Positions 1-61,207 of a stretch of DNA of 64,000 bases are shown here, one piece after another. Made by a program: the position numbers and the translations under genes. The notes beneath the pieces are model-generated. The model was not told the origin of the DNA and did not search any database. It was given only the letters and a program-made list of their open reading frames with translations. The stretch is from Minisyncoccia bacterium (GTDB lineage Bacteria; Patescibacteriota; Minisyncoccia; Phycocordibacterales; UBA9973). The number at the start of each line of letters is the position of its first letter. Positions within the stretch are counted from its first letter, which is position 1. The DNA lies in contig JBAQFO010000012.1 of the NCBI GenBank assembly GCA_049287305.1, forward strand, positions 7,113-71,112, written 5' to 3'.

Positions 1-776
1 CCAAGAGCTTCTCCCAGGGAGGTGGTGCTTTTTTCATATTGAGCTATGCCTCCCAGCGCAACGATGGGGTCTGCGTCGTAAAGCTGTATATCTTCCAAAT
101 TTTCCACCACTTTTTCTCCCATATTTAACACATCTAAATATAGAAGGGACAGATTCTGTGGGACTTCTATCTTTGACATCGCATTCATTCGTGCTCGAGT
201 TTCCTTTATTATTGGACCAAGTTGAGACAGGTTGCCGCTGTCGGAATCGTTTTCGTCAATTACAAATTTTTGCAATATATCCATCACGCTTCCCTGTATT
301 GGGTATTTAACGTAGATGCCGTTCAGTGTATCGTTGAATTTTTTCGTAGCAGTCACGCTGTTATCAGGCAACACCCTTATGTCAGAAAGTGTATATATTT
401 TTCTTTGAGTAGAATTTTTTATATGCTCGGCGAGGGAACTGCTTATCTGCTCAACTGTGGACTGATCCATAACCCCTGCTTCATTCAAGGCGGCTATTGT
501 AGAGAAAAGTTCTCGGGAGAACTTATCGGTTTCGGTTAGGGTTTCATTGCTATTCCCTAAGTTTCCTTCCTCACCCATACTTGCCTCCTGCTCTACTTTT
601 AGTTTGTTCACCGTTGTAATATCGGGCACCCCTGGAGTGGTTTCTCGGTTGTCGGGGTCTAGCCCCCACAAGACTTCTTCCCAGTCGGGCACACCATCTT
701 GGTCGGTGTCGTTATATACCAGTTCTGCCACAGTATAGTCTCCGTAAAGTAACACGTTTTCACGATTAACTTCCAA
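1..776 (-). CDS. Hypothetical protein, 3' end beyond window start (partial)
   Basis: Own reverse-complement translation of 1..776 gives a stop-free frame running off position 1 (>=258 codons): ...LEVNRENVLLYGDYTVAELVYNDTDQDGVPDWEEVLWGLDPDN.... It is absent from the ORF track because no stop falls inside the window. Start is uncertain: TTG at 776..774 follows AAGGAG with a 6-nt spacer, and alternative GTG/TTG codons lie up to 827. Confidence 0.5.
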   Translation of the reverse strand, partial: MEVNRENVLLYGDYTVAELVYNDTDQDGVPDWEEVLWGLDPDNRETTPGVPDITTVNKLKVEQEASMGEEGNLGNSNETLTETDKFSRELFSTIAALNEAGVMDQSTVEQISSSLAEHIKNSTQRKIYTLSDIRVLPDNSVTATKKFNDTLNGIYVKYPIQGSVMDILQKFVIDENDSDSGNLSQLGPIIKETRARMNAMSKIEVPQNLSLLYLDVLNMGEKVVENLEDIQLYDADPIVALGGIAQYEKSTTSLGEAL

Positions 777-3392: not shown

Positions 3393-5420
3393 TTATAGAT
3401 ATATTGTTTTTATCCCGCTGTCTTCACCTTCTTTTTCCAATAAATCAGCGGGGAGGTCGCTCAGAAACTCGGATGGAGCATTTATATTACGTGAACCGAA
3501 AATAGTGCGGAAGTTGGCAAACGATAAAAATAATTTTTCTTTGGCTCGGGTGAGAGCGACATAGAAAAGTCGGCGCTCCTCTTCCCTGTCTTCTCCACTT
3601 TGTCCCTCATTTTGTCTTTGGTGTGGGAAGAGTCCGTCTTCAAGTCCGGTAATAAAAACATGCTTGAACTCCAACCCCTTGGACGCGTGCACTGTCATCA
3701 ACTTTACCGCACTTACTTCTTTTTTCTTGTCATCGTTTATTATCAAGCTGTCTTGGTCCGAGGCGAGCGAGGCGTCTTCCAAAAGTTTTTCTATCCCTGT
3801 GCCGTCTTCTAGGGCATCGTATTTGAGTGCCAGGGTGGCAAGCTCCTTTATGTTTTCAAGTCTTTCTGTTTCTTCTTCGCTTCCGTTTGCGAGCTCTTGC
3901 TCAATGCCAGACTTTTTCACCACAAATTTTATTACTTCGCTTGTTTTGGAATTTTGTATTTTTTCTTTTATTTCTTCAAGGACTTGGAAGAAAGTGTCAA
4001 TTTTCACCCTTACTTTAATGGGGAGGGTTTCTTTTTGTCCGGCAAATAGCTTTGTCAGAGTCACCTTGCCTATTCCGCGAGTGGGGAAATTTATAATTCT
4101 TTTTATATCTGATAAGTTGTCAGGGTTTAAGGCCGCGCGCAGATAAGCAAGAGTGTCTTTTATTTCTTTTCTTTCAAAAAACTTAATACCCAAAACTTGA
4201 TAAGGGATGTTATAGCGAAGCATGGCTTCTTCGAGCGCGCGAGATTGGAAATTCGCTCGATACAGAACCGCCATCTCCGACAAAACCAGTCCGGCAGTGC
4301 TTTTGCTCAGGTCCTCGGTTCTCCGGGTCCCTATCCCGGCCAGACCATTCTCAAAAGCAGCGCCGGACTGGTCAAGCACCCCCAAAATTTTTGTCGCCAC
4401 AAAATCCGCTTCGTCGGTTTCGTCCAGCGCCTCGTAAAGTCCTATTTTTTCACCAACAGCGTTGTCGGTGAATAAATTTTTGTCGGGGCGATAAATATTT
4501 TTCTTTATTATTACATTAGCCGCTTCCAGAATGTTTTTTGTTGAACGGTAATTTTGTTCCAGCATTATTATCGTGGCATCGGGATAGTCTTTTTCAAAGC
4601 TTAGAATATTTTTCAAATTAGCTCCGCGCCACGAATATATATTTTGGTCGGCGTCCCCCACCACGCAGATGTTTTTATTGTTTTCGGACAAAAGTTTGGA
4701 CATCAAATACTGCACTTCGTTTGTGTCCTGGTATTCGTCCACGTGGATGTATTCCCATTTTTCCTGATATATTTTTCTAATTTCAGGCTTGTCTTGCAAT
4801 AGTTTTGTAGCCTTTAAAAGCAAATCGTCAAAATCAAGTGCATTTTCTTTCATCTTTCTTTTTTCATACAGATTCCAAACCTGAGACACAATTCTGCCCC
4901 AAGGACTTGCCCCTCCGGCTTCCCTTTCCGCGTAGTCCGCCAAGTGAATGAATTTTCCTTTCTCTCTTGAGATAATACTTTTTATTTTTTTAGGTTCGTA
5001 TTGCTTCGGGTCTACCCCTAATTCTTTCTGGATATCTTTAATGAGCCCGACAGCATCATTTTCGTCCAATATTGTAAAATATTTTGTTAGTCCCAAAATT
5101 CTGGCGTTCTCTTTTATAATAAACACCCCCAAGGAGTGGAAGGTAGATACAAACGGAATTTTATTTTGCCCTTTGGCGTTTTTTTCTATTTCCGCAATCA
5201 CCCGTTCCCGCATTTCTTTGGCGGCTTTATTGGTAAAAGTTACGGCCAGGATTTTTTCGGGAGAAACGCCTTCCTTGATAAGATTTACTATCCTATGAGT
5301 AATTGTTTTAGTCTTTCCGGCTCCCGCGCCCGCAACAATAAGAAGCGGCCCCTTCGTGTGAAGCGCCGCCTGCCGTTGTTCTTTATTTAAACCTCTTAGG
5401 TGTTCTGTGTCCTTGTCCAC
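3393..5420 (-). CDS. uvrD: ATP-dependent DNA helicase UvrD/PcrA family
   Basis: Walker A GAGAGKT close to the N-terminus, 675 aa with the typical UvrD helicase motif order. Confidence 0.9.
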   Translation of the reverse strand: MDKDTEHLRGLNKEQRQAALHTKGPLLIVAGAGAGKTKTITHRIVNLIKEGVSPEKILAVTFTNKAAKEMRERVIAEIEKNAKGQNKIPFVSTFHSLGVFIIKENARILGLTKYFTILDENDAVGLIKDIQKELGVDPKQYEPKKIKSIISREKGKFIHLADYAEREAGGASPWGRIVSQVWNLYEKRKMKENALDFDDLLLKATKLLQDKPEIRKIYQEKWEYIHVDEYQDTNEVQYLMSKLLSENNKNICVVGDADQNIYSWRGANLKNILSFEKDYPDATIIMLEQNYRSTKNILEAANVIIKKNIYRPDKNLFTDNAVGEKIGLYEALDETDEADFVATKILGVLDQSGAAFENGLAGIGTRRTEDLSKSTAGLVLSEMAVLYRANFQSRALEEAMLRYNIPYQVLGIKFFERKEIKDTLAYLRAALNPDNLSDIKRIINFPTRGIGKVTLTKLFAGQKETLPIKVRVKIDTFFQVLEEIKEKIQNSKTSEVIKFVVKKSGIEQELANGSEEETERLENIKELATLALKYDALEDGTGIEKLLEDASLASDQDSLIINDDKKKEVSAVKLMTVHASKGLEFKHVFITGLEDGLFPHQRQNEGQSGEDREEERRLFYVALTRAKEKLFLSFANFRTIFGSRNINAPSEFLSDLPADLLEKEGEDSGIKTIYL

Positions 5421-6950: not shown

Positions 6951-7538
6951 TTACTTTCCTGCCATCCTCTCTCTTATCTCAGCCATCTTTTTCTCTTTTT
7001 TTATTAAGGGGTCGTTATCCTTGTTTTTTTCTGTGTCCGTAAACGCCGCTATCCTGGCCCTTATCTCGGCTATTTTCTTAACTCTTATTTCTTCCATCTC
7101 TGCTTTTTCGGCGGCGATAGCTTCTGTGTTAATAGGCTCTACTTCACTTTTTAATTCTCTTATTTTATATCCAAGCCGAGCCACTTCTCTTTCCTGTTCT
7201 CTTTTTGTGTGTTCGCCCTCATAGTGGGTATCTTTCAGCCTCTCTAGCAACATTTGGGCATTTTTTATATTAACCTCTGCAGTAGTATACAATCTTTCAT
7301 ATGTGTCGTCTTGTGCGTCGAAAATGGCTTTTTCAACATCACCCACCATGTTATGCAACTCTTCTATGCCGTCAAAATTGTTGACTGGTTTTGTTTCTAG
7401 AGCTCGCCTAGGAGATTTTTGTGAAATTTTAGGTCTCTGGGTAATCTTATTATTTTGTAGATTTATCTTCATTACACCGACTTTTTTTATCGGTTTGCCT
7501 TTAGGAGATTTAGGACTATCCCAAAAATTTAATTTCAT
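6951..7538 (-). CDS. Hypothetical Lys/Glu-rich protein
   Basis: 195-aa ORF with predicted coiled coil and no motif. Confidence 0.5.
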   Translation of the reverse strand: MKLNFWDSPKSPKGKPIKKVGVMKINLQNNKITQRPKISQKSPRRALETKPVNNFDGIEELHNMVGDVEKAIFDAQDDTYERLYTTAEVNIKNAQMLLERLKDTHYEGEHTKREQEREVARLGYKIRELKSEVEPINTEAIAAEKAEMEEIRVKKIAEIRARIAAFTDTEKNKDNDPLIKKEKKMAEIRERMAGK

Positions 7539-7639
7539 ATATATATATATTATATAAGGCTTTTGATTTTTAAGCTAATTCTTTATATACCATCATTAAT
7601 AATATGCCTTTTAAAAGATTTTGTAAAACAAGGGGTATA

Positions 7640-7795: not shown

Positions 7796-9376
7796 TCACT
7801 TCTTGAAACGCGCCTTTGCTTCGGAGCGCGCGTCCTCGAACACCTGCGAGAAGAATTGACGTGACGACGGTGAAACCGTCACGTGGAACGTTCTGCTCCC
7901 CGTCACCTCCTCTATGAAGCTTAGGTATCCATAGTGCTCGAGGTCTTCCAGGATGAATGTCAGGCACCTCCGCTCTCCTTTCGGGAGGTAGAGATATGAA
8001 ACATCGAAGACTTGGCCACTCGTGTGCGTAGGAAATGCCGTCCGAGCGTTGACGATTTTTCCCTTCTTGAGTAGCTCCTGATACTCAAGGTGTCTGACGA
8101 GAGAAGTCACGTCCAACGGCACGAACTCCTCTTTCGGGTAGAGCTTCACGTGCAGGCGGCGGGTTTCAAACGCCACGGTCAGCAGCGCTCCATGGGCAGC
8201 CGGAGAGTTCTGGAGGTAAAGTTCTTGATTCTCCAGGTCCTTTTCGGCGATTGGCCCATTTCCCGAAGTCCGAAGCTTGAAGCCGAAGTAATCCGGCTCT
8301 TCGAACAAGGGCTCAAGCCCTTTTCCGCCACCGTCGCGCGGGTTTAGGTCACGAAGGTTTTTGTAAATCAAGTCCTTCTTGGTGAGCCAGAACCACATGC
8401 GGCTGGGAACCTCGCCCTTTACGTTGACGTTTTCCCTGTATCTCCGGGCCAGCTTTTTGAATTTAGCTGGTTCGGTCTGGTAAAGGTCGAAGAGCTCTGC
8501 GGCTGCGACGACGCGGAACCAATAAGTCGGAGACCAATCCCTTCCCATGTGATAGCGAATCTTGTGATAGATTTTGCTATTAAATGAGGGGTGGTTGAGG
8601 AAGAAAAGCCTCGGCATTGTAACTGGTTCGCCGAAGGCCTTCTTGCCAAGAGAGACCATCTCTTTGACGCACCCTCTTCCACAGTGGAAAGCAAACACCG
8701 CCAGGTCTTCCCCGCCGAGGTCCGCCTCCAACCGTTTCAGGTAATGCGCCGCCGCGAAGATCGACTTCTTGGCGTTGAGCCTGTCGTCTTTCACCACGAC
8801 GGTGTAAGAGACAGTTCTCCACCCGGTTGCCACCTTGCGCCGCTTCTTTCCCTTCCCTTTGTATTTCCATCCTTTGGGAACTTTTTTCTTGCGAACCTCC
8901 TTATTTACCAATCCCGCATCCACCCCTGTGCCTTCGGTGAACTGCATGACTCCGCGAGGACCGGTCGGGCTTTTCGCCCTTGGGTCTCCGCAGCTTTCAA
9001 TCCAAGCCATACCTTGCAGCATGGTCTGGGAGAAACCGCTCTCACGAGCAGCTTCTCTGAAAATCGGCTGAAGAGCATTAATACGTTCGGCGCATTGCAC
9101 AGCGACCGGGCTGCGCAATATTCCAAACTTCTGCTCTTCTACCACCCTCTCTGTTCGCTCAGAGAGAGCGGTTTCCGACATGTTTTCCCGTCCTACGCCA
9201 ACCGAAAGCTGGTGTTTGGGGACGAAAAACGACGGTTTTGTAAGCGCGTTTGTCGTTGCCGTGCCCAGCGTCCGCTGGAACATGACGAAAAGAGTGATGA
9301 GGCCGGTTACGAGAAGAACCTCGCACACTGCCAACACCACCCACCACATACGAGGAACCTCTCTGCAGCTTTTCAT
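7796..9376 (-). CDS. Membrane-anchored lytic transglycosylase (SLT domain) protein, GC-rich gene
   Basis: N-terminal TM segment, then SLT catalytic signature GMAWIESCGDPRAKSPTGPRGVMQFT. GC content is visibly higher than the flanking genes, and the gene has its own terminator. Confidence 0.8.
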   Translation of the reverse strand: MKSCREVPRMWWVVLAVCEVLLVTGLITLFVMFQRTLGTATTNALTKPSFFVPKHQLSVGVGRENMSETALSERTERVVEEQKFGILRSPVAVQCAERINALQPIFREAARESGFSQTMLQGMAWIESCGDPRAKSPTGPRGVMQFTEGTGVDAGLVNKEVRKKKVPKGWKYKGKGKKRRKVATGWRTVSYTVVVKDDRLNAKKSIFAAAHYLKRLEADLGGEDLAVFAFHCGRGCVKEMVSLGKKAFGEPVTMPRLFFLNHPSFNSKIYHKIRYHMGRDWSPTYWFRVVAAAELFDLYQTEPAKFKKLARRYRENVNVKGEVPSRMWFWLTKKDLIYKNLRDLNPRDGGGKGLEPLFEEPDYFGFKLRTSGNGPIAEKDLENQELYLQNSPAAHGALLTVAFETRRLHVKLYPKEEFVPLDVTSLVRHLEYQELLKKGKIVNARTAFPTHTSGQVFDVSYLYLPKGERRCLTFILEDLEHYGYLSFIEEVTGSRTFHVTVSPSSRQFFSQVFEDARSEAKARFKK

Positions 9377-9895: not shown

Positions 9896-10909
9896 TTGTT
9901 CGGGGTCCTTTTTTTCCCCCTCATGGTGGAAGCGGGATTCTTTTCTTATTTGGCTGGAGAAAGCGCCAACGCCCAGGTTGTTCCCGCGGTAGCGCAAAAT
10001 AACAGCAACTCTCAGGTAGCCTTTGCTCTTGAACCTATGGCTACATTTGGGTCAGAAAAGAACGACATGCCAGGCGAGGTTGTTATTTCTGACAATGCCC
10101 TTCATGCCCACATTGGCCCGCTCGGCTCCGGCTCGGCGGGCATTTCTAGTGGAGGAACAGGGTCCGGTGACTTCTCTTTTGATGAAATAAGCTTTTACGA
10201 AGTGAGAAAGGGAGACACCTTGGCGCAGGTAGCCGAACTCTTTGATGTTTCCGAAGACACCATTCTTTCCGCCAACGACATGAAGAAGGGCGACAAGCTA
10301 AAGGTGGGTGAAGTCCTTCTTATTCTTCCTTTCTCGGGAGTGGAATACACCGTGGTTAAAGGAGATACTCCGCAAGGTATAGCCAACAAGCACAAGGTGA
10401 GCTTGAATGACATTTTAATACACAATGACATAGACTTGGATTCTCCGCTTTCTATCGGAGACAAGCTTATGATACCGGGAGCAAGTTTGCCGAGCGAGAC
10501 TAAACCAAAAAACGGGGCGGGCAACGTGGCCAAAGGAAAAGGGTCTTCATCAATGCCAAGCATTGTCGGCTTCTTTAAGAATCCTATTTCCGGAGGTAGA
10601 AAATCAAGAGGCGTAACCTCTACCCATAAAGGGGTTGATATCGCGGCTCCAATAGGCACACCTATTTATGCTTCAGCCGGAGGAAAAGTTTTGACCGCGA
10701 AAATGGGGTGGAACGGAGCTTTCGGAAACATGGTAATCTTGCAACACGAAAACGGTACTAAAACTCTTTACGCCCACATGTCAAAACTTGGCACTACAAC
10801 CGGCTCCCAAATAAACCAAGGAGATGTGATCGGATACGTGGGAAACAGCGGACGTTCAACGGGCCCCCATTTGCACTTCGAAGTTTTAGGAGCTAAAAAT
10901 CCTTTCTAG
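9896..10909 (+). CDS. LysM-domain M23 family metallopeptidase (cell-wall hydrolase)
   Basis: Two LysM repeats (VRKGDTLAQVA..., VVKGDTPQGIA...) and the M23 motifs HKGVDIAAP and GPHLHFEV. A signal-peptide-like N-terminus means the true start may be a non-ATG codon slightly upstream. Confidence 0.85.
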   Translation: MFGVLFFPLMVEAGFFSYLAGESANAQVVPAVAQNNSNSQVAFALEPMATFGSEKNDMPGEVVISDNALHAHIGPLGSGSAGISSGGTGSGDFSFDEISFYEVRKGDTLAQVAELFDVSEDTILSANDMKKGDKLKVGEVLLILPFSGVEYTVVKGDTPQGIANKHKVSLNDILIHNDIDLDSPLSIGDKLMIPGASLPSETKPKNGAGNVAKGKGSSSMPSIVGFFKNPISGGRKSRGVTSTHKGVDIAAPIGTPIYASAGGKVLTAKMGWNGAFGNMVILQHENGTKTLYAHMSKLGTTTGSQINQGDVIGYVGNSGRSTGPHLHFEVLGAKNPF

Positions 10910-12054: not shown

Positions 12055-12204
12055 TTACGAGATCAATGCGATGACGGCGGTCAGGAGCAGTGTTGCTCCG
12101 GTGACCCACCGCAACCAGATTGCCACGTACCACCACGGCTTTTTTTCGGTCTGTTTGACGTCGTCGCCCCAGACCGAAGTGCCTGCCGGTGTCAGAATGG
12201 CCAT
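12055..12204 (-). CDS. Small single-TM protein (49 aa), GC-rich
   Basis: Own translation: MAILTPAGTSVWGDDVKQTEKKPWWYVAIWLRWVTGATLLLTAVIALIS. SD GGAGG lies 6 nt upstream. A perfect 11-bp-stem hairpin (caaggcgggga/tccccgccttg, 11995-12038) followed by TTTTTTT on the minus strand is a classic intrinsic terminator. Confidence 0.4.
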   Translation of the reverse strand: MAILTPAGTSVWGDDVKQTEKKPWWYVAIWLRWVTGATLLLTAVIALIS

Positions 12205-12313: not shown

Positions 12314-12384
12314 CGGGCCGTAGTATACCGGTAGTACAAGTGCTTTGGGAGCATTTAGACTGGGTTCAATTCCCAGCGGCCCGA
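12314..12384 (+). tRNA. tRNA-Pro (anticodon TGG)
   Basis: Cloverleaf by hand: acceptor cgggccg/cggcccg, anticodon loop tttggga, T-arm ctggg-ttcaatt-cccag. No encoded CCA. Confidence 0.8.
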
Positions 12385-12388
12385 CATT

Positions 12389-12459
12389 GCGGGATTAGTT
12401 TAATGGTAAAATAACAGTTTTCCAAACTGTGGTTGGGAGTTCGATTCTCCCATCCCGCA
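12389..12459 (+). tRNA. tRNA-Gly (anticodon TCC)
   Basis: Acceptor gcgggat/atcccgc, anticodon stem acagt/actgt with loop tttccaa, T-arm gggag-ttcgatt-ctccc. Sits 4 nt after tRNA-Pro. Confidence 0.85.
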
Positions 12460-12473
12460 CAGAGTAAGGGACA

Positions 12474-12496
12474 AAAAGCAAATTTATTTGCTTTTG
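12474..12496 (+). terminator. Intrinsic terminator after the tRNA-Pro/tRNA-Gly pair
   Basis: aagcaaat-tt-atttgctt hairpin followed by TTTTG. Confidence 0.5.
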
Positions 12497-12568
12497 AGGA
12501 GATTCGAAAGATTTTTTGCTGTAGTGAGCTTGTCGAATCTACCAAAAAATACCTGGCTATGTAATAGC

Positions 12569-12588
12569 CGATTCTCCCATCCCGCACA
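12569..12588 (+). repeat. 20-nt direct repeat of the tRNA-Gly(TCC) 3' end (att-like remnant)
   Basis: cgattctcccatcccgcaca occurs at 12442-12461 (inside the tRNA) and again at 12569-12588, preceded by the small hairpin ggctatgtaatagcc. Confidence 0.6.
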
Positions 12589-12592
12589 ACAT

Positions 12593-13714
12593 TTAAGCAG
12601 CAGCTTTTTTAACTTCTTCAATCGAGTCGCCTTCAGCGACTACTTCCAAATTCTTATTTAATCTTCTAAATTTCCCTCCTTCTTTGCGAGGTTTGAGGAT
12701 GATGTCGTCTGAAACTTTTCCCCCTGTGCTCCAGCTTGAGTGTATACCCCAAGAAACAGATTCTTCAACATAAAAACCCGTTTCATCTTCAAACATAAGT
12801 GTTCCATCTTCTAACAAAATATTGTAGCCGAAGCCTGCTCTTACGACAGCTCGAGTCTTTGTATCATTCGGTACATATTCACCTATTTTGTGTAAAATTA
12901 TTGCATTTTTGTCTAGAATATAAATGTTATTGTCATGTTTTACCATCCATAAATTTCCCACGCTTGGTATTATTGGGTTATCGTATTCCTTAGATAGTTT
13001 CCCTGTTTCTGCGGAGAAAAGTCTATATTTAATGTCACCGAAAAAACCTCCATAAGTCACAATAACCGCGCTATCTTTCCGGACGCTACCTATTGCAGGA
13101 ATTTCTTGTTTAACGACTTCATGCCCCTGCTGATCGACAACAAAGTAACCATCTTGTTTGTTACCGACTATGCTAAAGCGGCCTACCGATTCAAACTTTG
13201 CTCTCATGGCCTCACCTCCCCTATTCTCGTAAATTTCTTTTTGCACAGCTTCTTTAAACTTTTCTTTATCCAAAAATTCTAAATTCGGAAATGTATTATC
13301 TATCTCATAAACTTTTTTACATAAATCAGAAATTGTATTTATGTCGTGCTCCAACAATTCAACGAACTCCTCCTGTGCAATATTAGCTAAAAAAAGCTCA
13401 ACAGCCTGTCGTATTTGGGTTACAAGATCATCGTATTCTTTAAATTTAACTAATTTTTCTGAGCTGTTCTCCTCGTTCTCATGCTTCGCCTGGTAGTTTA
13501 CGACACACTCATCAACTTGAGATAAAAATTGAGGCGCGAGTTCGGCTAACTGTTCTATCTTTTTCCTATTCTGTAATTCTTTTTTTTCTTGTTCTGCTAA
13601 AAAATCAGATCTCGTTACGGGGCCAAAATCAGTCGCACCGCGGATTATCGCTTCCTCTACCTCTTTTATATTCTGGTTACTATTTTCAGTATTCAAAAAG
13701 TTTTCTAAAGGCAT
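12593..13714 (-). CDS. Hypothetical protein
   Basis: 373-aa ORF with an acidic helical N-terminus and a Gly/Trp-containing beta-rich C-terminal half. No recognised motif. Confidence 0.55.
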   Translation of the reverse strand: MPLENFLNTENSNQNIKEVEEAIIRGATDFGPVTRSDFLAEQEKKELQNRKKIEQLAELAPQFLSQVDECVVNYQAKHENEENSSEKLVKFKEYDDLVTQIRQAVELFLANIAQEEFVELLEHDINTISDLCKKVYEIDNTFPNLEFLDKEKFKEAVQKEIYENRGGEAMRAKFESVGRFSIVGNKQDGYFVVDQQGHEVVKQEIPAIGSVRKDSAVIVTYGGFFGDIKYRLFSAETGKLSKEYDNPIIPSVGNLWMVKHDNNIYILDKNAIILHKIGEYVPNDTKTRAVVRAGFGYNILLEDGTLMFEDETGFYVEESVSWGIHSSWSTGGKVSDDIILKPRKEGGKFRRLNKNLEVVAEGDSIEEVKKAAA

Positions 13715-14421: not shown

Positions 14422-14495
14422 TGGTGCGGCCAGGGAGAATCGAACTCCCGTCTCATCCTTGGCAAGGACGTGTTCTACCACTAAACCATGACCGC
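14422..14495 (-). tRNA. tRNA-Gly (anticodon GCC), CCA encoded
   Basis: Reverse complement folds into a cloverleaf: gcggtca...tggccgc-acca, anticodon loop ttgccaa, T-arm gggag-ttcgatt-ctccc. Confidence 0.85.
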
Positions 14496-14626: not shown

Positions 14627-14698
14627 GCACCCGTAGTGAAATGGATATCACAACAGTCTTCGGAACTGTCGTTGGGGGTTCGAATCCCTCCGGGTGCA
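14627..14698 (+). tRNA. tRNA-Arg (anticodon TCG)
   Basis: Acceptor gcacccg/cgggtgc, anticodon stem acagt/actgt with loop cttcgga, T-loop ttcgaat. Confidence 0.8.
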
Positions 14699-14708
14699 CA
14701 AAAGTAAA

Positions 14709-16262
14709 ATGGACTCTTCGAAAAACTTAATAGAAAAAATCCCCAAACAAGTTTCACATGTAACCACAACCTTAGAAAAGGCTGGTTTTGAGGCGTTCCT
14801 GGTGGGCGGATGCGTTAGGGACCTAATCATGGACAGGGAACCAAAGGACTGGGATATCACCACCAATGCAAAGCCAGAACAAATAATGGCATTGTTTGAG
14901 AAAACCGTATATGAGAATACTTTTGGGACCGTGGGGGTCTGCGTTCCGCGTGAAACGGAAAAAAGTGTTTCACATGTAACGCGAAAAGAGGAGGTTACTC
15001 ATGAAACATTCGAATATGATATTATTGAGGTGACTCCCTATAGAATTGAGACAAAATATAGCGATTTTAGACATCCGGACGAAGTCCGATTTAGCGATAA
15101 GCTTGAAGATGACCTTAAAAGACGTGACTTCACAGTCAATGCCTTAGCATTAAGAATTAGCGATAATTCTAAAGGACATGTAGTGGACCTATTTGGAGGC
15201 ATAAAGGACATAAAGGACAAAACATTAAAAGCCGTGGGGGAGGCGGATGATAGATTTTCGGAGGATGCGCTCCGAATGTTGCGAGCAGTGCGCTTCGCTT
15301 GCCAACTTGATTTTTCTGTGTCGTATGAAGTAACCCAAAGTATTGTAAAAAATTCGGAATTAATAAAAAAAATATCGGCTGAAAGAATTCGTGACGAGCT
15401 TGTAAAAATAATTATGTCAAAAAATTCCGCGAGTGGAATTACTATGCTCTCTAAATTCGGATTGTTAAAAAATATTATTCCGGAGCTTGAAGAGGGGATA
15501 GGGTGTGACCAATCCGGAGAACATATTTATGATGTGTGGACGCACTTACTTATGGCTATGCAGCATGCCGGGGACAAGAATTGGCCTTTAGAAATAAGGC
15601 TCTCCGCGCTGTTTCACGATATAGGCAAACCCCGAACGAGAAGGCTTGCTGAAGATAAAACCAAAAAAATGTATACGTTTTACGGACACGAAGTGGTGGG
15701 CGCCAGGATGACGAAAAAAATAATGGAGCGATTAAAGTTTCCGAAAAAAGAAATTGATTTCGTGGAAAAAATGGTGCGTAGCCACATGTTCTTTTCCGAT
15801 ACGGAACTCATTACTCTTTCCGCTGTGCGAAGAATTATTGCTAAAGTTGGAAAAGAAAATATCTGGCTCTTGATGAATGTGCGGGAGTGCGACCGAGTTG
15901 GCATGAAGAAAAAAGAAGCGCCGTATCGTCTGCGCAAGTATTTTGCGATGATAGAAGAGGCGCTCCGTGATCCGATATCGGTCAACCAGCTTAAAGTTGA
16001 CGGAGAGTTTATGATAAAAGAGCTTGAAATCAAACCTGGTCCCCGCATGGGCTGGATTTTGCACGCACTTTTAGAAGAAGTGCTGGATGCGCCGGAGAAA
16101 AACACAGTGGAGCATCTGTCCGACCTGGTAAAATCCCTGAACATGCTCGGCGATGCTGAACTAAAAGCCCTAGGGGAACGAGGGAAAGAGAAGAAAGAAG
16201 AATTAGAAGAGAAAGAGGTAGAAAAATTGCATTCCAAGCACGGAGTGAGGAAAAATTCGTAA
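14709..16262 (+). CDS. cca: CCA-adding enzyme / tRNA nucleotidyltransferase with HD domain
   Basis: GGCVRDLIMDREPKDWDITT Pol-beta nucleotidyltransferase head plus HD region (HDIGKP). Start taken at the ATG right after tRNA-Arg; the track's upstream GTG overlaps the tRNA. Contains insertions encoding a VSHVT repeat. Confidence 0.85.
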   Translation: MDSSKNLIEKIPKQVSHVTTTLEKAGFEAFLVGGCVRDLIMDREPKDWDITTNAKPEQIMALFEKTVYENTFGTVGVCVPRETEKSVSHVTRKEEVTHETFEYDIIEVTPYRIETKYSDFRHPDEVRFSDKLEDDLKRRDFTVNALALRISDNSKGHVVDLFGGIKDIKDKTLKAVGEADDRFSEDALRMLRAVRFACQLDFSVSYEVTQSIVKNSELIKKISAERIRDELVKIIMSKNSASGITMLSKFGLLKNIIPELEEGIGCDQSGEHIYDVWTHLLMAMQHAGDKNWPLEIRLSALFHDIGKPRTRRLAEDKTKKMYTFYGHEVVGARMTKKIMERLKFPKKEIDFVEKMVRSHMFFSDTELITLSAVRRIIAKVGKENIWLLMNVRECDRVGMKKKEAPYRLRKYFAMIEEALRDPISVNQLKVDGEFMIKELEIKPGPRMGWILHALLEEVLDAPEKNTVEHLSDLVKSLNMLGDAELKALGERGKEKKEELEEKEVEKLHSKHGVRKNS

Positions 16263-23729: not shown

Positions 23730-24173
23730 ATGAGCAAAATTACCCTTCTGGAGAAGAAGGAAATTATTGCAGTCACGCCGCATGTTCGCTTCGTGGCTTC
23801 CGATTTCTTTCGTGGTTGGCAAGTTGGTTTGAATTTTGAGAATCTGTTCCTTGGTGTTGTTGAAGAAACAGGTGGACAGTCAGTCGAGATTGAATTGCAC
23901 GACCTTTCCGAGTGGTTGGTAAACGGTCCAATCATTGAGGAGTTGGGTGGGGCGTCAAAGACGGGTATCTCTCTGGCGACCTTCGCCGCAATCGCTGCGA
24001 CCGGATGCTCCTTCGTTGCCCACGTTCTTGACGAGGACAGCAAACCCTGGGCAGTTTTCTATCGCCAAGAAGGGGCGCAGCATGTCGCCGGAGCGGATTC
24101 CACCGACTACAAATATTGGTGGTATGGCGGCGGGCGGTTTGCTTCTCCGCATCTCACCCCGTGTATTCTCTGA
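23730..24173 (+). CDS. Hypothetical protein (GC-rich island gene 1)
   Basis: 147-aa ORF with a GC-rich codon profile and an upstream AAGAAAGGA ribosome-binding site. Confidence 0.5.
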   Translation: MSKITLLEKKEIIAVTPHVRFVASDFFRGWQVGLNFENLFLGVVEETGGQSVEIELHDLSEWLVNGPIIEELGGASKTGISLATFAAIAATGCSFVAHVLDEDSKPWAVFYRQEGAQHVAGADSTDYKYWWYGGGRFASPHLTPCIL

Positions 24174-24287
24174 CAATTGGTTTACTAAATAGAAACACAT
24201 GCGTGTAGTTTGTGTGTTCACCTGACTGAGTGTGGGTTTCCTGCACTTTCCATTAACTCCGGTAACGCCAAAAAAGGAGGTGAAAAC

Positions 24288-24497
24288 ATGAACCGCAACA
24301 ACGAAGAGACGTTCGAACTGGAGTGCCGACATCTCGTCCAATTGCTCCGGCAAGAAGAGGGGTTGTCTCTGCAAGATCTGCAGGATCAGGACAACCCTGT
24401 CGCGCTCGAGCTGGTGGAAGACTTCTGTGAAGAGGCTGGAATCTCTCGAGAGTGGTTCGAGGGGTTCGTGGGTCGGATGATTCTAGCGCTCAATTGA
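24288..24497 (+). CDS. Small acidic protein (GC-rich island gene 2), paralog of gene 3
   Basis: Start at the internal ATG, 5 nt after AAGGAGGTG. Product MNRNNEETFELECRHLVQLLRQ...DNPVALELVEDFCEEAGISREWFEGFV. Confidence 0.5.
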   Translation: MNRNNEETFELECRHLVQLLRQEEGLSLQDLQDQDNPVALELVEDFCEEAGISREWFEGFVGRMILALN

Positions 24498-24698
24498 GCG
24501 TACGGGAGAAGCACCGCTTCCGCCGACAACAATCGCACGCCCGCAGACGCGTAGTTTGCTGGGCATTGCAATTGGATATTGGTTTAACCAATATCTTCCA
24601 TCAACCTGGGTTCTGGCTCAGTTCAAACTGAGCTGCAGTGCGAGTCGCTCTAACAAAGCGACTCGCACTGCCCCAAAACTGCGTGAAAGGAGAAGCAG

Positions 24699-25106
24699 AT
24701 GCACAGCAATTCCACCCTCAACATCCTCAACGAGGAAGCCGCCGAGCGAGAGCTCCGAGGGCGACGGACCAGCAAGCAGTGCGAGTCGCTTGAGTGGCAA
24801 TGCCGGCTACTCGCCAACGTGCTCGCCGCCTGCTGCCTGACCATCAGCGAACTCGAGGATGACCCGACCTCAACCGACCGTGTCGCAGAAATTTTCTGCC
24901 ACGACACTGGTCTCGAGCGGGGAGACTTCGATCGTCTCGTTCAGGACGTGCGCGCCACGCTTGCCTCGGCGAGCCGGAAGCTGAGAGATACGTCTCTCAG
25001 GTTCCGCGGGAGTGGAGGTCGGCACCGAAACCTCGACGAGGTTGAGCGTCAGCCCGACCCCCTGGGACGTACTCGGGCTCAGTATGGCTGGTGGCCGAAA
25101 GACTGA
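24699..25106 (+). CDS. Hypothetical protein (GC-rich island gene 3), paralog of gene 2
   Basis: AAAGGAGAAG ribosome-binding site. The segment ...LEWQCRLLANVL...DDPTSTDRVAEIFCHDTGLERGDFDRLV aligns with gene 2. Confidence 0.5.
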   Translation: MHSNSTLNILNEEAAERELRGRRTSKQCESLEWQCRLLANVLAACCLTISELEDDPTSTDRVAEIFCHDTGLERGDFDRLVQDVRATLASASRKLRDTSLRFRGSGGRHRNLDEVERQPDPLGRTRAQYGWWPKD

Positions 25107-25181
25107 GCTGCAGCACGGGTCGTTGGATGACCAGCGATCCGTGCTGCCCCACTACCACTTCAAATGTAAGGGGCACAAGAC

Positions 25182-25448
25182 ATGACACGCAAAGTAGAAA
25201 ACGACAGCGATGCAGAAAGTCTCCACAAGAGGCTCCAGCAGATCAATGGGGTGCGTAAGCAGCACGGAGAAAACGACAAAACCATCGCTGCGCTGACAGA
25301 ATCTCTCTCGCATGACGGTTTCTCGGACGAGGGAGAAGCTTGGAATACACTGGTAGAGTACTATCAAACTCACCGTCGCGTTGAAAAGATTTACGTGGCA
25401 GATCGACCTCTGTTTCCAGACGGCAGAAAGTCGTGGTATCCGCTGTAG
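25182..25448 (+). CDS. Hypothetical protein (GC-rich island gene 4)
   Basis: 88-aa ORF with an upstream AAGGGG ribosome-binding site. Confidence 0.45.
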   Translation: MTRKVENDSDAESLHKRLQQINGVRKQHGENDKTIAALTESLSHDGFSDEGEAWNTLVEYYQTHRRVEKIYVADRPLFPDGRKSWYPL

Positions 25449-25470
25449 AACTACTCAACAATCATCGAAA

Positions 25471-25519
25471 TGACCGTGCGCAAGGTGTACACACCTACGC
25501 ACGGTCATTCTCTTTTTTG
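25471..25519. terminator. Intrinsic terminator at the right border of the GC-rich island (possibly bidirectional with xth)
   Basis: 10-bp stem tgaccgtgcg/cgcacggtca followed by TTCTCTTTTTTG. Confidence 0.65.
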
Positions 25520-25524
25520 TGAAA

Positions 25525-26313
25525 CTATATCTCTATTGAAACAGGACAGTGGTCGGAACCCATGACTTCGGGCAGAATTTTTGCAGACTTAATTTTTTTT
25601 GCGAGTTTTCCGGAAACAAAAATATAATCAATTCTCCAGCCTACGTTTCGCACGCGAGCATTGGCGAAATGGCTCCACCAGGAATAATGTCCGTTGCCTT
25701 CTGTGAAAATCCGGAAAGTGTCTACAAATCCTGCTTCTATTATTTTATCTATTCCTTCACGCTCTTCGTCGGTGAAGCCTTTGTTGCCGATATTTTCCTT
25801 AGGACGCGCCAAGTCGTCCTCTGTGTGTGCCACATTCAAATCCCCACAGAAAATTACGGGCTTTTTTTTCTCCAAACTAGTAACAAATTCCAAGAATGCC
25901 GGGTCCCATTGTTTGTGCCGGAGCGGGATGCGGGAGAGGTCGTCTTTGGCGTTCGGGGTGTAGACAGTGACCACATAAAAATCTTTAAATTCTGCCGCGA
26001 TTACTCGCCCTTCGGTGTTTGGGTCGCCGTAAGAATCTTCCAACTTGTATTTTTTTTCAATATTTTCGGGAAAGCCTAAAATTACGGATAAAGGCTTTGT
26101 TTTTGTGAATATAGCAGTGCCGCTGTAGCCTTTTCGGGTCGCCGAATTCCAGAACTCTTCGTATTCAGGCAAATCCACAACACTCTGATGTTGTTCAGCT
26201 TTCGTTTCCTGCAGGCACAAAATATCAGGGTTGTGTTTTTTAATGAAGGGCACAAAAAATCCCTTCTTGTGCACCGCCCGTATTCCGTTTACATTCCAGG
26301 AAATTATTTTCAT
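25525..26313 (-). CDS. xth: Exodeoxyribonuclease III (AP endonuclease)
   Basis: MKIISWNVNGIRA...CLQETK plus the C-terminal SDHCPV motif. Confidence 0.9.
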   Translation of the reverse strand: MKIISWNVNGIRAVHKKGFFVPFIKKHNPDILCLQETKAEQHQSVVDLPEYEEFWNSATRKGYSGTAIFTKTKPLSVILGFPENIEKKYKLEDSYGDPNTEGRVIAAEFKDFYVVTVYTPNAKDDLSRIPLRHKQWDPAFLEFVTSLEKKKPVIFCGDLNVAHTEDDLARPKENIGNKGFTDEEREGIDKIIEAGFVDTFRIFTEGNGHYSWWSHFANARVRNVGWRIDYIFVSGKLAKKIKSAKILPEVMGSDHCPVSIEI

Positions 26314-26351
26314 TAACTAATTTTAGCACATGAGGTCTTCTGATTGTAAAT

Positions 26352-27224
26352 ATGGTATTTTCGTGTTTTACTTTAGTAGTGATAACTTTAAATAACAAGA
26401 AAACTTTTCAGGCACTTATTCTAATTTTAATTTTCTCCTTCGCGGGGTTCCTGGTGTGGTATTTTGCCGTGAGTCCCGTAATCGAGGCTTCTTGGCAACA
26501 GCAGTTTGCCGTTCCTTCCGAGGCAATTTTCAATGGCAACATGGTTACTATTAAAAATGTGCGCAATTTTCGCTACTCTCCAACAGAGAAGGACCAGCAC
26601 CCGAATTATTACGATAAAACTTATGATTTAAGCACCGTAAAGGCCGTGTGGTATATATCCGAACCTTTTAACGAAAACAAACTGGCGGCACACACTTTTC
26701 TGTCTTTTGAATTTGAGAATGGGGATTTCTTGGCAATAACTATTGAGGCAAAAAAGAAAATTGGGCAAGAATACAGCACCTGGAAGGGAATCATGCGAAA
26801 TTATCCGCTTATGTATATAGCGACGGATGAACGGGATTCGGTGATGCTCCGAGCGAACGTTCGGCAGGATAAAGTTTACGTATATCCTGTAAAGCTTTCA
26901 AAGCCGGAAAACGCGGAGGCTCTGCTTACCGATATGCTGGTAAAAATGAATAAGCTAAACGAAGAACCTGAGTGGTATAACACTATTTGGCATAATTGCA
27001 CTTCGGAAATTGCCTATCACGTGAATCGCATAAGCGGGGACAGAATTTCATCTTATAGCTGGGAATATTTTATAACAAGCGAAGCGGATAAGTTTGCTTT
27101 AGAGAATGGCTTGCTTGACACCAAACTTACAATAGAGGATGCTCGAGAAAAATATTTAATTACCGAGAAGTCGCTCACTATAGGCGATGTTCTAGAATAT
27201 TCTAAATTAATAAGAGAAGAGTAG
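26352..27224 (+). CDS. Membrane-anchored protein, DUF4105-like
   Basis: N-terminal TM segment. A conserved WHNCTSEIAYHV-like segment is reminiscent of the Lnb N-terminal/DUF4105 family (from memory, moderate confidence). Confidence 0.5.
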   Translation: MVFSCFTLVVITLNNKKTFQALILILIFSFAGFLVWYFAVSPVIEASWQQQFAVPSEAIFNGNMVTIKNVRNFRYSPTEKDQHPNYYDKTYDLSTVKAVWYISEPFNENKLAAHTFLSFEFENGDFLAITIEAKKKIGQEYSTWKGIMRNYPLMYIATDERDSVMLRANVRQDKVYVYPVKLSKPENAEALLTDMLVKMNKLNEEPEWYNTIWHNCTSEIAYHVNRISGDRISSYSWEYFITSEADKFALENGLLDTKLTIEDAREKYLITEKSLTIGDVLEYSKLIREE

Positions 27225-61185: not shown

Positions 61186-61207
61186 TTTGGCTTTGTTTTT
61201 TATAAAA

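Follow-up and report, generated by a model that had tools for sequence, protein, structure and literature searches.

Genomic islands and prophages reportedly enter tRNA and tmRNA genes by means of tyrosine integrases, and, as Williams is said to have set out in 2002, the resulting attL and attR repeats begin in the T-loop and run on as far as the gene's 3' end. The module described here, which lies directly 3' of a tRNA gene in a member of the Patescibacteria, resembles such islands in its tRNA and tmRNA hosts, the duplicated extent, the existence of filled and empty alleles, and its tandem arrays. Unlike these islands, it carries neither integrase nor cargo and is found at 24 isoacceptors, its arms fitting the tRNA in question each time. 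Its left boundary is also unfixed, and the DNA between its repeats is a covarying structure.

tRNA-like RNAs freed by tRNA-processing enzymes, such as the MALAT1 mascRNA, the Y-RNA-like YrlA of bacteria, viral 3' tRNA-like structures and the tRNA-like domain of tmRNA, form another group for comparison. Like them, the module has an acceptor-like 3' strand with a discriminator and a compact conserved fold, and it is placed where tRNA 3' and 5' processing would free it. It differs from them in copying the 3' end of the upstream tRNA instead of a generic tRNA, in having its T-loop half paired and no elbow, and in matching none of the Rfam models.

In vibriophage CTX, an attP folded as a single strand mimics the duplex of the host dif site for XerCD. 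One strand of the module likewise holds both halves of a target-like duplex, and folding recreates the host site; unlike CTX, the module comes without a phage genome or replication gene, a single-stranded form of it is hypothetical, and it is found at many tRNAs, not at one dif. Guide RNAs are represented by the omega-RNA of TnpB (IS200/IS605) and by the tRNA-directed homing crRNA of type V-K CRISPR-associated transposons. The module shares with them a scaffold and a hairpin followed by a 3' match of about 17-20 nt at the 3' end of a tRNA gene, but there is no effector nearby, the "guide" is paired internally, and a true duplication is present. REP/REPIN sequences and MITEs, finally, are gene-less bacterial repeat elements, which the module recalls in being short, hairpin-rich, intergenic, variable between relatives and present several times per contig. 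Unlike these, it has no terminal inverted repeats, its duplication of 17-24 bp is anchored at C56 instead of being short and fixed, and it is tied strictly to tRNA 3' ends, partly rewritten per site and conserved over very distant genomes.

The Patescibacteria (CPR) are ultra-small, comprise a large share of bacterial diversity and have tiny genomes and a poorly understood RNA biology. In this group, a structure of about 125 nt with an invariant 18-mer recurs at many tRNA genes and is missing from Rfam. No description of such a module was found in a literature search that covered subscription papers in part, and a tRNA-end-copying module is apparently undescribed so far.

The duplicated tRNA-Gly end and its surroundings

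The window, that is, the whole stretch of 64,000 nt analysed here, belongs to a Minisyncoccia bacterium (Patescibacteriota; CPR) and corresponds to positions 7,113-71,112 of the forward strand of contig JBAQFO010000012.1 (assembly GCA_049287305.1). As the preliminary description had it, the 20-mer CGATTCTCCCATCCCGCACA is duplicated, with two exact copies on the + strand at 12442-12461 and 12569-12588 and a spacer of 107 bases between them. No third copy exists in the 64-kb window, even with three mismatches allowed, and none of 100 dinucleotide-preserving shuffles matched the repeat. The features around it are as follows.

12314-12385, + strand: tRNA-Pro(TGG) (ARAGORN; Rfam tRNA, 58.4 bits)
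12389-12460, + strand: tRNA-Gly(TCC), the gene whose 3' end is duplicated (ARAGORN; Rfam tRNA, 70.6 bits)
12442-12461, + strand: repeat copy 1, composed of C56, T-stem 3' strand, acceptor 3' strand, discriminator A and then CA (exact 20-mer)
12569-12588, + strand: repeat copy 2, which forms the module's 3' arm and terminus and equals the tRNA-Gly end (exact 20-mer)
12593-13714, - strand: convergent gene of 373 aa, function unassigned; its stop codon lies 4 bases past copy 2

Copy 1 was correctly recognised as the 3' end of tRNA-Gly(TCC); it runs from C56 of the T-loop to 2 bases past the discriminator, and the gene has no encoded CCA. tRNA-Pro(TGG), which ends 3 bases upstream of tRNA-Gly(TCC), is the first gene of a conserved Pro-Gly tRNA pair and has no module at its 3' side in the window. 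The claim that copy 2 is preceded by a mimic of the T-stem holds in so far as a hairpin directly precedes it, but this hairpin is no T-stem mimic and is the same whatever the tRNA; the true T-stem complement lies about 70 bases upstream, at 12497-12506. A GC-rich patch is indeed present beyond the tRNA pair, mainly as a 49-codon ORF for a hydrophobic peptide (12055-12204, minus strand), but no link to the repeat was found.

Homologues of the 373-aa protein, obtained through a protein database, mark the orthologous locus in other genomes; none was found in the species-representative genomes. At this site, related genomes are empty, filled or doubly filled. Locus L014 represents the empty state, in which the tRNA-Gly end is followed by 8 bases and then by the stop of the neighbouring gene. 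Module occupancy of the Pro-Gly pair also varies between genomes, and at 10 other loci a module lies between tRNA-Pro and tRNA-Gly. In a distant relative, whose neighbouring protein is 42% identical, the architecture is the same, the spacer is about 90% identical, and both repeat copies carry the tRNA allele of that genome, CTCCT.

Architecture and covariation of the module family

An intact member of a family of folded modules occupies positions 12462-12588. Its parts in the window are listed from 5' to 3'; the 3' arm, copy 2, has been given above.

12464-12586, + strand: whole module, from its match to covariance model R1 of the family (102 bits, E 1.6e-22)
12462-12473, + strand: 5' flank, a weak complement of the acceptor 3' strand (GGGA 12468-12471 versus UCCC 12580-12583)
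12474-12495, + strand: hairpin P1, 9 bp (12474-12482 with 12487-12495), loop TTTA
12497-12506, + strand: anti-T segment AGGAGATTCG, complementary to copy 2 from C56 to C65
12506-12510, + strand: GAAAG junction strand of the three-way junction; AAAG is invariant in 45/45 aligned sequences
12511-12550, + strand: hairpin P3, base helix 12511-12518 with 12543-12550, variable tip
12551-12554, + strand: ACCT junction strand, invariant in alignment A1
12555-12569, + strand: hairpin P4, GGCTAT-GTA-ATAGCC, whose last C is tRNA position C56

The match to model R1 is the only convincing one in the 64 kb, the next-best having an E value of 0.12. The anti-T segment pairs with 12569-12578 to form the closing helix T*, in which the window copy has an A.C and a U.U mismatch, and the 5' flank of this copy pairs with the acceptor at 4 of 7 positions. 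The "direct repeat" is a structural arm of the module and not a scar, because its terminal copy pairs with the internal segment and thereby closes the three-way junction. A single-sequence fold of the window copy partly differs, with a local pairing of AGATTCGA and TCGAATCT; it was treated as a lineage-specific alternative, and the comparative structure was relied on instead.

Members of the family measure about 105-135 nt, that of the window about 125, and occur in Patescibacteria (CPR, Minisyncoccota). Among species-representative genomes, 8 contain the invariant hairpin region; it was also found in more than 120 metagenome contigs, which have the 18-mer CCTGGCTATGTAATAGCC to which P4 belongs. 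A co-oriented tRNA or tmRNA lies at most 80 nt 5' of 95 of the 119 model matches, and the tRNA hosts comprise 24 isoacceptors for 14 amino acids. Several copies may occur per contig, up to four in L031, and tandem copies are seen in L049, L042, L060 and L082. L024, L127, L059 and L141 represent a larger variant of the module. Module orientation follows the tRNA in all loci, and the downstream genes differ.

All modules share one plan, which reads from 5' to 3' as a short flank, P1, the anti-T segment, GAAAG, P3, ACCU, P4 and the tRNA-end copy. P1 and the subsequent three-way junction of GAAAG, P3, ACCU and P4 constitute a generic core, to which two neighbour-specific parts are added. One is the internal complement of the T-stem 3' strand and the 3' half of the T-loop, often extended so as to complement part of the acceptor 3' strand as well; the second is the terminal tRNA copy of 17-20 bases, from C56/R57 to the discriminator. 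The anti-T segment changes in step with the tRNA type and so keeps its match. Copy 2 begins at one fixed tRNA position throughout, and in 68 of 107 tRNA-linked instances the 14-24 bases after P4 are exactly those of the upstream tRNA from position 57. In L073 and L125, whose tRNA genes encode CCA, copy 2 includes CCA as well. Family-wide, the flank pairs better with its own acceptor than with others (4.95 versus 4.12 pairs, p 1e-6). When the modules were tested as acceptor mimics, the 3' strand was identical to that of the tRNA, and the 5' complement was full in long and standalone forms, reaching 7-10 bp in the longer ones, and weak or absent in many short forms. Cores do not group by tRNA type, and two modules of one genome (L084) have cores that are 96% identical and different arms. 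The right junction, P4 followed by R57, is invariant, whereas the left junction varies from discriminator +0 to +6, or lies after a terminator, or belongs to a standalone module; the functional unit is therefore made up of arms, core and copy 2 and is no insert with fixed ends.

Covariation was assessed on two alignments, A1 made with MAFFT and A2 fitted to the covariance model. In A1, 94.3% of the pairs are formed and compensatory changes affect 22 of 34 pairs; none of 500 shuffles scored as high, and slid controls gave 39-53%. In A2, 33 of the 34 pairs show compensatory changes. They were found in P1 at 7/9 pairs (A1) or 9/9 pairs (A2), with more than 98% of cells paired, and include an A-T to G-C change between the window and L015. 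P3 covaries at 5/8 (A1) or 7/8 base pairs (A2), and P4, in members without the exact 18-mer, keeps its helix through compensatory changes, with 5/5 pairs covarying (A2). All 9 pairs of T* covary in A2, T-loop position 59 included, though this helix is looser than P1 and P3 (10.7% unpaired versus 0.6-1.9%). Perfect repeats that mismatch the anti-T segment were seen in 14 cases, the window included, and 10 of the 17 mismatches are A.C. On the tRNA-sense strand, 40 G.U pairs stand against 22 A.C pairs, an excess in keeping with an RNA, though a modest one. The tip of P3 presents, in most members, two adjacent G.A / A.G oppositions between covarying pairs, as read directly from A1. Together with the invariant junction strands, these oppositions suggest a folded RNA.

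With Rfam 15 at the gathering threshold, the tRNAs alone match. Raising the E value to 10 yielded no credible match to the module in the window segment 12300-12650, and none of the models for tRNA, mascRNA, YrlA, tmRNA, IS605-orfB and HEARO match it. Over 13 related loci, Rfam returned tRNA, rRNA, tmRNA and one LOOT RNA, and nothing else; this LOOT RNA, in L050, is unrelated to the module by sequence and structure. A self-cleaving ribozyme was also rejected, as the hammerhead and HDV architectures do not appear to fit and no Rfam ribozyme model matched. Likewise, an intron in the T-loop or a split or permuted tRNA is out, the upstream tRNA being complete and of normal score.

Integrases, cargo and phage partners

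In the preliminary description, the repeat pair was taken for an att-like scar of a tyrosine-integrase element, either a remnant of an island later almost wholly deleted or a site awaiting integration. The geometry of the duplication bears this out in part. The DNA between the repeats behaves like an insertion, because the duplication extends from the T-loop to the 3' end, tmRNA genes are hosts as well, and the L014 site is empty. A tyrosine recombinase gene is also present in the window (27234-28142), but it encodes a 302-aa protein of the Xer type, lies 15 kb from the module and is the only one there. The spacer is no leftover of a lost element: at 102 bits against the family model, it is a complete, conserved and covarying structure. 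Nor was an occupied, integrase-bearing allele found among the more than 120 related loci, none of which has an integrase, transposase or cargo between the repeats. By the refuting conditions that the preliminary description itself named, the island explanation fails: in related genomes the duplication sits in a conserved element, and no integrase-bearing occupied allele is found. Moreover, a single integrase with its att site cannot explain a module that has identical architecture at 24 isoacceptors and arms fitted to every one of them. An island remnant or primed att target is thus very improbable. Annotators and island finders that equate a duplicated tRNA 3' end with an integrated element will mislabel module loci.

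The surroundings of the modules are equally devoid of mobility genes. No integrase, transposase, reverse transcriptase or TnpB was found near modules, and the window contains no TnpB, IscB, Cas, reverse transcriptase or transposase gene, its sole recombinase being the Xer-like one. Clustering of neighbouring ORFs over about 120 loci revealed nothing but housekeeping synteny (YraN, CCA enzyme, ZIP, RbfA, IF-2, cysteine desulfurase, M23 peptidase). YraN is the commonest neighbour, which is due to the Pro-Gly tRNA locus. Tandem arrays aside, neither the window nor the loci contain a third, distal tRNA end with which a larger island could be bounded, and no kilobase-scale occupied allele was found at the tRNA sites of these loci.

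A phage partner with a matching attP was sought as well. Viral contigs did not contain the exact 18-mer, and GenBank phages yielded no match to the window module. For the 17-mer GATTCTCCCATCCCGCA, 7 matches in viral contigs are phage tRNA genes and 3 are chance matches in GC-rich coding DNA; these matches were accordingly rejected as a sign of a phage partner.

Explanations for the module

The explanation we prefer, with moderate confidence, is a structured RNA module that rides on tRNA transcripts and is gained and lost via its flanking repeats. From structure and strand alone, we infer a probable function at the RNA level. The module would act as an RNA, be made as a 3' extension of the tRNA transcript and be cut free at the tRNA discriminator; its own 3' end is exactly the sequence of the tRNA 3' end. 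Recombination with the neighbouring tRNA gene, rather than any requirement of the fold, may keep copy 2 the same as the tRNA, because copy 2 follows tRNA alleles even where a pair breaks. Recombination or slippage between the repeats could delete or duplicate the module and thus give rise to the empty, filled and tandem states. Should the module function as an RNA, it would indicate a so far unrecognised step of tRNA metabolism, or else a tRNA-linked regulatory or decoy role, in hosts with minimal RNA processing.

Several features speak against a module acting as RNA. Long forms have an apparently good intrinsic terminator between tRNA and module and no room for a promoter, and the module would therefore depend on read-through. 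The T-loop half of copy 2 (positions 56-60) is base-paired with the anti-T segment in covarying pairs and forms no T-loop; a faithful mimic of the tRNA elbow is thus lacking, which makes recognition by RNase P, RNase Z and the CCA enzyme, whose gene neighbours the module at 14694-16262, uncertain. Repeats of 17-20 nt are also short for RecA-type gene conversion, and the arrival of correctly matched arms at new tRNA types is left unexplained. In L087, tmRNA-type modules border kilobase segments of accessory genes and so have an island-like look, a further point against an RNA; tmRNA-linked arrays with cargo are represented by L063, L064 and L094 as well.

The borders in L087 speak for the main rival, selfish DNA. 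With appreciably lower probability, the module may be a mobile element that has no genes and is not autonomous, or a DNA site of the att type, and its points of entry would be tRNA and tmRNA genes, the classical targets of integration. Once DNA has been taken up, homologous recombination wholly within the tRNA gene could insert it, copy 2 serving as a short right arm; PilB and PilC of the type IV pilus and a ComM-like protein, all encoded in the window, would fit such uptake. Alternatively, a recombinase encoded elsewhere could recognise the module folded as a single strand, in which the anti-T and acceptor segments and copy 2 rebuild the duplex of the tRNA gene 3' end; phage CTX restores dif in a similar way through its folded attP. 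Alleles that are cleanly filled or empty, with the repeat as their boundary, every occupancy state at the Pro-Gly pair, the four copies of L031 and the tandem arrays all agree with mobility, as do cores that are ungrouped by tRNA type and near-identical at two tRNAs of one genome, and a repeat spanning the T-loop to the 3' end of tRNA and tmRNA hosts. Pairing into T-loop positions 56-60 is likewise expected of a copy of the target duplex and not of a tRNA mimic. However, no recombinase or transposase is linked to the module at about 120 loci, the left end is neither conserved nor fixed in position, terminal inverted repeats are lacking, and conservative recombination cannot redirect a module to a tRNA that calls for different arms. 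Decaying selfish DNA would not usually keep an 18-mer invariant or show compensatory changes over very distant genomes, and the absence of kilobase-scale occupied alleles from the tRNA sites, of the 18-mer from viral contigs and of the window module from GenBank phages also counts against this explanation. If the module is nevertheless selfish, it would be a gene-less mobile entity whose site-specific parts are rewritten per tRNA, and it would bear on the origin of nucleic-acid-guided mobility.

A gene for a guide-like RNA is quite improbable. P1 and P3 would be its scaffold, P4 its hairpin and the 17-20 nt corresponding to tRNA positions 56/57-73 its 3' guide; with its help, an unlinked nuclease of the TnpB/Cas12 type or a recombinase would home to tRNA genes or bring about retention there, the universal G53-T54-T55 serving as a PAM/TAM-like flank. 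Layout and length fit, since 17-24 nt after the hairpin are identical to adjacent DNA, and the left junction at discriminator +0 to +6 is where a PAM-distal cut would fall. The flank of the module's own copy is unlike that of the T-loop, and this copy would be protected because it is preceded by GCC. GTT is present in every tRNA, though, and is therefore uninformative as a flank. The 3' stretch of 17-24 nt matches the tRNA gene just past G53-T54-T55, yet within the module it is sequestered by a covarying internal complement. TnpB, IscB and Cas genes neither occur in the window nor recur among the neighbours, and Rfam similarity is lacking at E up to 10, also to IS605-orfB and HEARO. Hardly conceivable is a by-product in which the convergent 373-aa gene has its terminator in P4 and a T-run on the minus strand, and chance or slippage produced the repeat. 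The minus-strand sequence GGCTATTACATAGCC, with AGGTATTTTT after it, is indeed flagged as terminator-like by a simple scan, but orientation is set by the tRNA and not by the downstream gene, the T-run is in most copies CTTTTCC inside helix P3, the 20-mer repeat is far beyond chance, and conservation over the whole family contradicts such a by-product.

A further proposal, which we consider unlikely, is that the module is a device without protein genes that carries both strands of the tRNA 3' end and, through this match, directs where in the set of tRNA and tmRNA genes it is placed, retained or copied. Such a device could be a guide for an unlinked nuclease or recombinase that reads the GTT flank, or a target mimic folded from a single strand. 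If this proposal is true, the near-identical cores of L084 with their rewritten, site-matched arms would be the footprint of an undescribed retargeting mechanism.

The repeat and the folded module it closes

The repeat of the tRNA-Gly 3' end reported in the preliminary description is real. The exact 20-mer CGATTCTCCCATCCCGCACA is present at 12442-12461 (copy 1) and 12569-12588 (copy 2), has no other site in the window even with three mismatches allowed, and found zero matches in dinucleotide-preserving shuffles. It extends from C56 of the T-loop through the 3' strands of the T-stem and acceptor to the discriminator, plus CA; CCA is not encoded. The hairpin GGCTATGTAATAGCC lies directly 5' of copy 2, and the stop codon of a convergent gene is found 4 bases past it. 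The 373-aa product of this gene is identical to a protein of the Minisyncoccia MAG GCA_049303715.1, so that the window can be assigned to a genome of the Patescibacteria (CPR). The window is ordinary chromosome, with a single Xer-type tyrosine recombinase gene and with genes for a ZIP transporter, an M23 peptidase, YraN, the CCA-adding enzyme, PNPase, RNase Y, NusA, trigger factor, CarAB and PilB/PilC.

The tRNA genes and the parts of the module, given 5' to 3' on the tRNA-sense strand in window coordinates
12314-12385 (+): tRNA-Pro(TGG), 3 bases before tRNA-Gly(TCC)
12389-12460 (+): tRNA-Gly(TCC), its 3' end being copy 1
12462-12473: short 5' flank
12474-12495: hairpin P1, 9 bp, loop TTTA or CTGC across the family
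12497-12506: anti-T, complement of T-stem 3' strand 61-65 and usually also of T-loop 56-60
12506-12510: GAAAG
12511-12550: hairpin P3; base helix (U-run/A-run) invariant, tip variable
12551-12554: ACCU
12555-12569: hairpin P4
12569-12588: tRNA copy (copy 2)

Copy 2 pairs with anti-T in a helix termed T*, so that a three-way junction is closed. In an alignment free of structure fitting (MAFFT), 94.3% of the cells are paired and 22 of the 34 pairs show compensatory changes, values that no shuffle reached, the slid controls giving 39-53%. In the model-fitted alignment of 110 distinct sequences, compensatory changes occur in 33 of the 34 pairs, including all five of P4. The repeat is one arm of a complete, conserved and covarying module. 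The tRNA-sense strand has 40 G.U against 22 A.C pairs. A minus-strand terminator-like call was rejected, as it arises in this window alone and runs counter to the orientation seen throughout the family. Many copies have a 5' flank that is also complementary to the acceptor 3' strand, over 4-10 pairs, with 4.95 pairs to the module's own acceptor versus 4.12 to other acceptors (p ~1e-6); in the window this complement is weak, being GGGA against UCCC and nothing more.

The hairpin preceding copy 2 had been taken for a mimic of the T-stem. It is P4, which is the same whichever tRNA it follows and therefore mimics none in particular; anti-T is the tRNA-specific complement. In most members, the P3 tip (MAFFT columns 64-68 and 85-89, window ~12523-12542) has two non-canonical oppositions side by side, G.A and A.G, flanked by covarying Watson-Crick pairs and lying beside a 1-2 nt bulge, a candidate motif for protein binding or tertiary contact. 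The window copy also has an inverted repeat of its own, AGATTCGA (12500-12507) and TCGAATCT (12534-12541). When the copy is folded as a single sequence, these two arms offer a pairing other than helix T*; the second arm is absent from the related locus L015.

A family at tRNA and tmRNA 3' ends

Species-representative genomes with the 23-mer GGCTATGTAATAGCCGATTCTCC number 8 and bear the labels Patescibacteria, Nomurabacteria, Paceibacterota and 'Saccharibacteria'; the 18-mer CCTGGCTATGTAATAGCC was found in at least 120 metagenome contigs. Among the matches listed, which comprise 133 instances of the 18-mer and include a handful of chance matches in coding DNA, 107 have a co-oriented upstream tRNA, and in 68 of these 107 the hairpin is directly followed by 14-24 bases that repeat that tRNA exactly. 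Such copies start at position 57 and end at the discriminator or a few bases past it; in two loci (L073, L125) the tRNA gene encodes CCA, and the terminal copy has CCA as well. Searched with a covariance model trained on 45 instances, the window yields a single copy (12464-12586, 102 bits, E 1.6e-22). The model detects 119 copies across 98 loci; some of these copies lack the exact 18-mer, and some are the second, third or fourth on their contig. Ninety-five of the 119 lie at most 80 nt 3' of a tmRNA gene or of a tRNA gene (24 isoacceptors, 14 amino acids). Members of the family are widespread among Patescibacteria and are tied to the 3' ends of tRNA and tmRNA genes.

Rfam has no match to the module, whether the gathering thresholds are applied or hits with E as high as 10 are allowed, and the accessible literature was found to contain no description of such a module. 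The LOOT RNA of contig L050 (RF03000, 81.6 bits, 10386-10503, plus strand) was considered as a relative and rejected as unrelated; a tRNA-Ser gene with a module of its own (10092-10226) lies ~340 nt upstream of it.

Module sites are gained and lost. At the conserved Pro(TGG)-Gly(TCC) pair, the module follows only Pro in 10 loci, only Gly in 4 (the window included) and both in 1; locus L049 has two tandem modules after Pro and one after Gly, and tandems also occur in L042, L060 and L082. Some modules stand alone, with no tRNA within several hundred bases. The right junction, from P4 to R57, does not vary, while the left one lies 0 to 6 bases past the discriminator, or 30-45 bases further, past a terminator-like hairpin. 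The window's tRNA-Gly(GCC) (14422-14495, minus strand) and tRNA-Arg(TCG) (14627-14699, plus strand) lack a module, which the same isoacceptors carry in other genomes (e.g. L016, L073).

For three distant homologues of the 373-aa protein (42-47% identity), the contigs were identified and the loci aligned with the window. In L015, tRNA-Gly is followed by a spacer ~90% identical to that of the window and by a second copy of the tRNA end, the T-stem allele being AGGAG/CTCCT, with CTCCT in both copies. In L014, whose source sample also yielded a contig identical to the window, the site is empty, the stop of the gene lying 8 bases past the tRNA-Gly end. With one relative filled and the other empty, the inter-repeat DNA therefore behaves as an insertion or deletion. 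The conservation of its sequence is far above that of the neighbouring protein. In the third locus, L013 (3815-4010), which is uninformative, the tRNA pair is inverted relative to the 370-aa gene, so the surroundings of these tRNAs do undergo local rearrangement.

Modules following tmRNA often form tandem pairs (L063 6373-6626; L064 4283-4402; L094 5769-5974). Their arms fit the tmRNA T-arm and acceptor. In some variants P4 is altered (…CAGCGACCGTAGGGC…), and in others it is separated from the copied end by an additional hairpin, GATAAGCGTACTCGCG. Modules of a second type, larger but of the same logic (L024, ~175-420, minus strand; L127, ~4430-4690; L059; L141), have no Rfam match. Anti-T and AATCGAAAG are followed by a ~90-nt domain (...GGCGAGCCGAGTCGGGGTCGCGAG...GTGACCGAAC), a hairpin containing ATGTAAT and the tRNA 3' end. 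This type is often in tandem with the standard module, giving three successive copies of one tRNA end.

Generic core and site-specific arms

Part of each module is matched to the neighbouring tRNA or tmRNA: anti-T, the acceptor complement and copy 2 depend on the tRNA, and P1, P3, P4 and the junction strands are independent of it. The cores are not grouped by tRNA type, as the isoacceptor is shared with the nearest non-identical neighbour in 15 of 95 cases (chance, 8%). In L084, the cores of the tRNA-Leu(TAA) and tRNA-Leu(TAG) modules are 96% identical, and their arms and terminal copies differ, each fitting its own tRNA; L016 repeats this pattern for Gly(GCC) and Gly(TCC). This may reflect homogenisation of cores inside a genome or, alternatively, the making of new copies whose arms are rewritten to suit their new site.

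Helix T* is maintained far more loosely than P1 or P3, unpaired cells amounting to 10.7% and 17.4%, versus 0.6% and 1.9%. Fourteen modules, the window's included, have T* mismatches, mostly A.C, despite a perfect repeat; the window anti-T, AGGAG, matches the L015 allele CTCCT and not the window's own CTCCC. Copy 2 therefore tracks the tRNA gene and not the fold, a sequence pattern that points to its recombining with, or being re-created from, the adjacent tRNA.

RNA or mobile element

The best explanation, which we give an even chance of being right, is that the module works as an RNA, with its flanking repeats driving loss, duplication and homogenisation. It would be co-transcribed with the tRNA and released at the tRNA discriminator, its own 3' end being of tRNA type. 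Against this stands the terminator between tRNA and module in some copies; the T-loop half is paired, so the module is not a faithful tRNA mimic; and an RNA function offers no mechanism for matched arms at new tRNAs. The main rival, unlikely but to be taken seriously, is a gene-less mobile or att-type DNA element. Its spread would rely on recombination within the tRNA gene, or on a recombinase whose substrate is a folded strand, the target duplex being rebuilt by the fold. Some support comes from the 8.6-kb contig L087 (1-8611), in which three tmRNA-type modules (84-253, 4595-4714, 7362-7600), each with a terminator and a degenerate tmRNA-like end (...TCTCCACA) upstream of it, bound segments of accessory-looking genes: amidohydrolase, RNHCP and two radical-SAM proteins in the first, HTH_17, an RNase H-like protein and DUF6602 in the second, and DUF3800 in the third. 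The contig has no integrase and looks like an island array without one.

The layout, a hairpin followed by 17-20 nt matching the tRNA gene after GTT, would also fit a guide RNA, but the guide is base-paired and no effector was found, making this very improbable. The scar of a tyrosine-integrase island, as originally proposed, can hardly be the explanation and fails the refutation conditions named with that proposal: the repeat is an arm of a conserved module; the module loci have no linked gene for an integrase, transposase, reverse transcriptase, TnpB or Cas protein, their recurrent neighbours being the housekeeping genes of tRNA loci; and repeat pairs enclose tandem modules at most. A set of 2.9 million viral contigs does not contain the exact 18-mer, and the window module matches no GenBank phage; the tRNA-end 17-mer is present in viral contigs solely inside phage tRNA genes or by chance. 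Single features recur in known systems, among them tRNA-targeting islands, tRNA-like RNAs, the folded attP of CTX, omega-RNA and homing crRNAs, and REPIN/MITE repeats; none of these joins a generic folded core to arms and a terminal copy that are rewritten per tRNA. Cautiously, it may be called a tRNA-linked structured RNA or element; that it is categorically new, its placement programmed by nucleic acid without a linked protein gene, is improbable, though the chance is a real one.

The sole recombinase in the window is the Xer-type gene (27234-28142, minus strand; 302 aa, N-terminal SAM-like domain), 15 kb from the repeat and with no adjoining tRNA. A ComM-like Mg-chelatase-family ATPase (37243-38832, plus strand), PilB (59425-61185, plus strand) and PilC (61172-62425, plus strand) are consistent with DNA uptake, which, if true, would matter for recombination-borne spread of the module. 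The GC-rich patch noted beside the tRNA pair is present and corresponds to a 49-codon ORF just upstream of tRNA-Pro (12055-12204, minus strand; ~58% GC), a called gene in the source assembly, encoding a hydrophobic peptide with no Pfam match. The region 24000-26400 has 50-56% GC, versus ~41% for the genome, and holds an Exo_endo_phos nuclease gene (25525-26313, minus strand) and several overlapping ORFs without a family match. The covariance model's weak second match in the window (E 0.12) is a GC-rich hairpin at 24604-24676, which is probably unrelated to the module. Further GC-rich stretches lie at 8000-9000, within an SLT-domain gene, and at 54-59 kb, in the gene for a 1266-aa CARDB protein.
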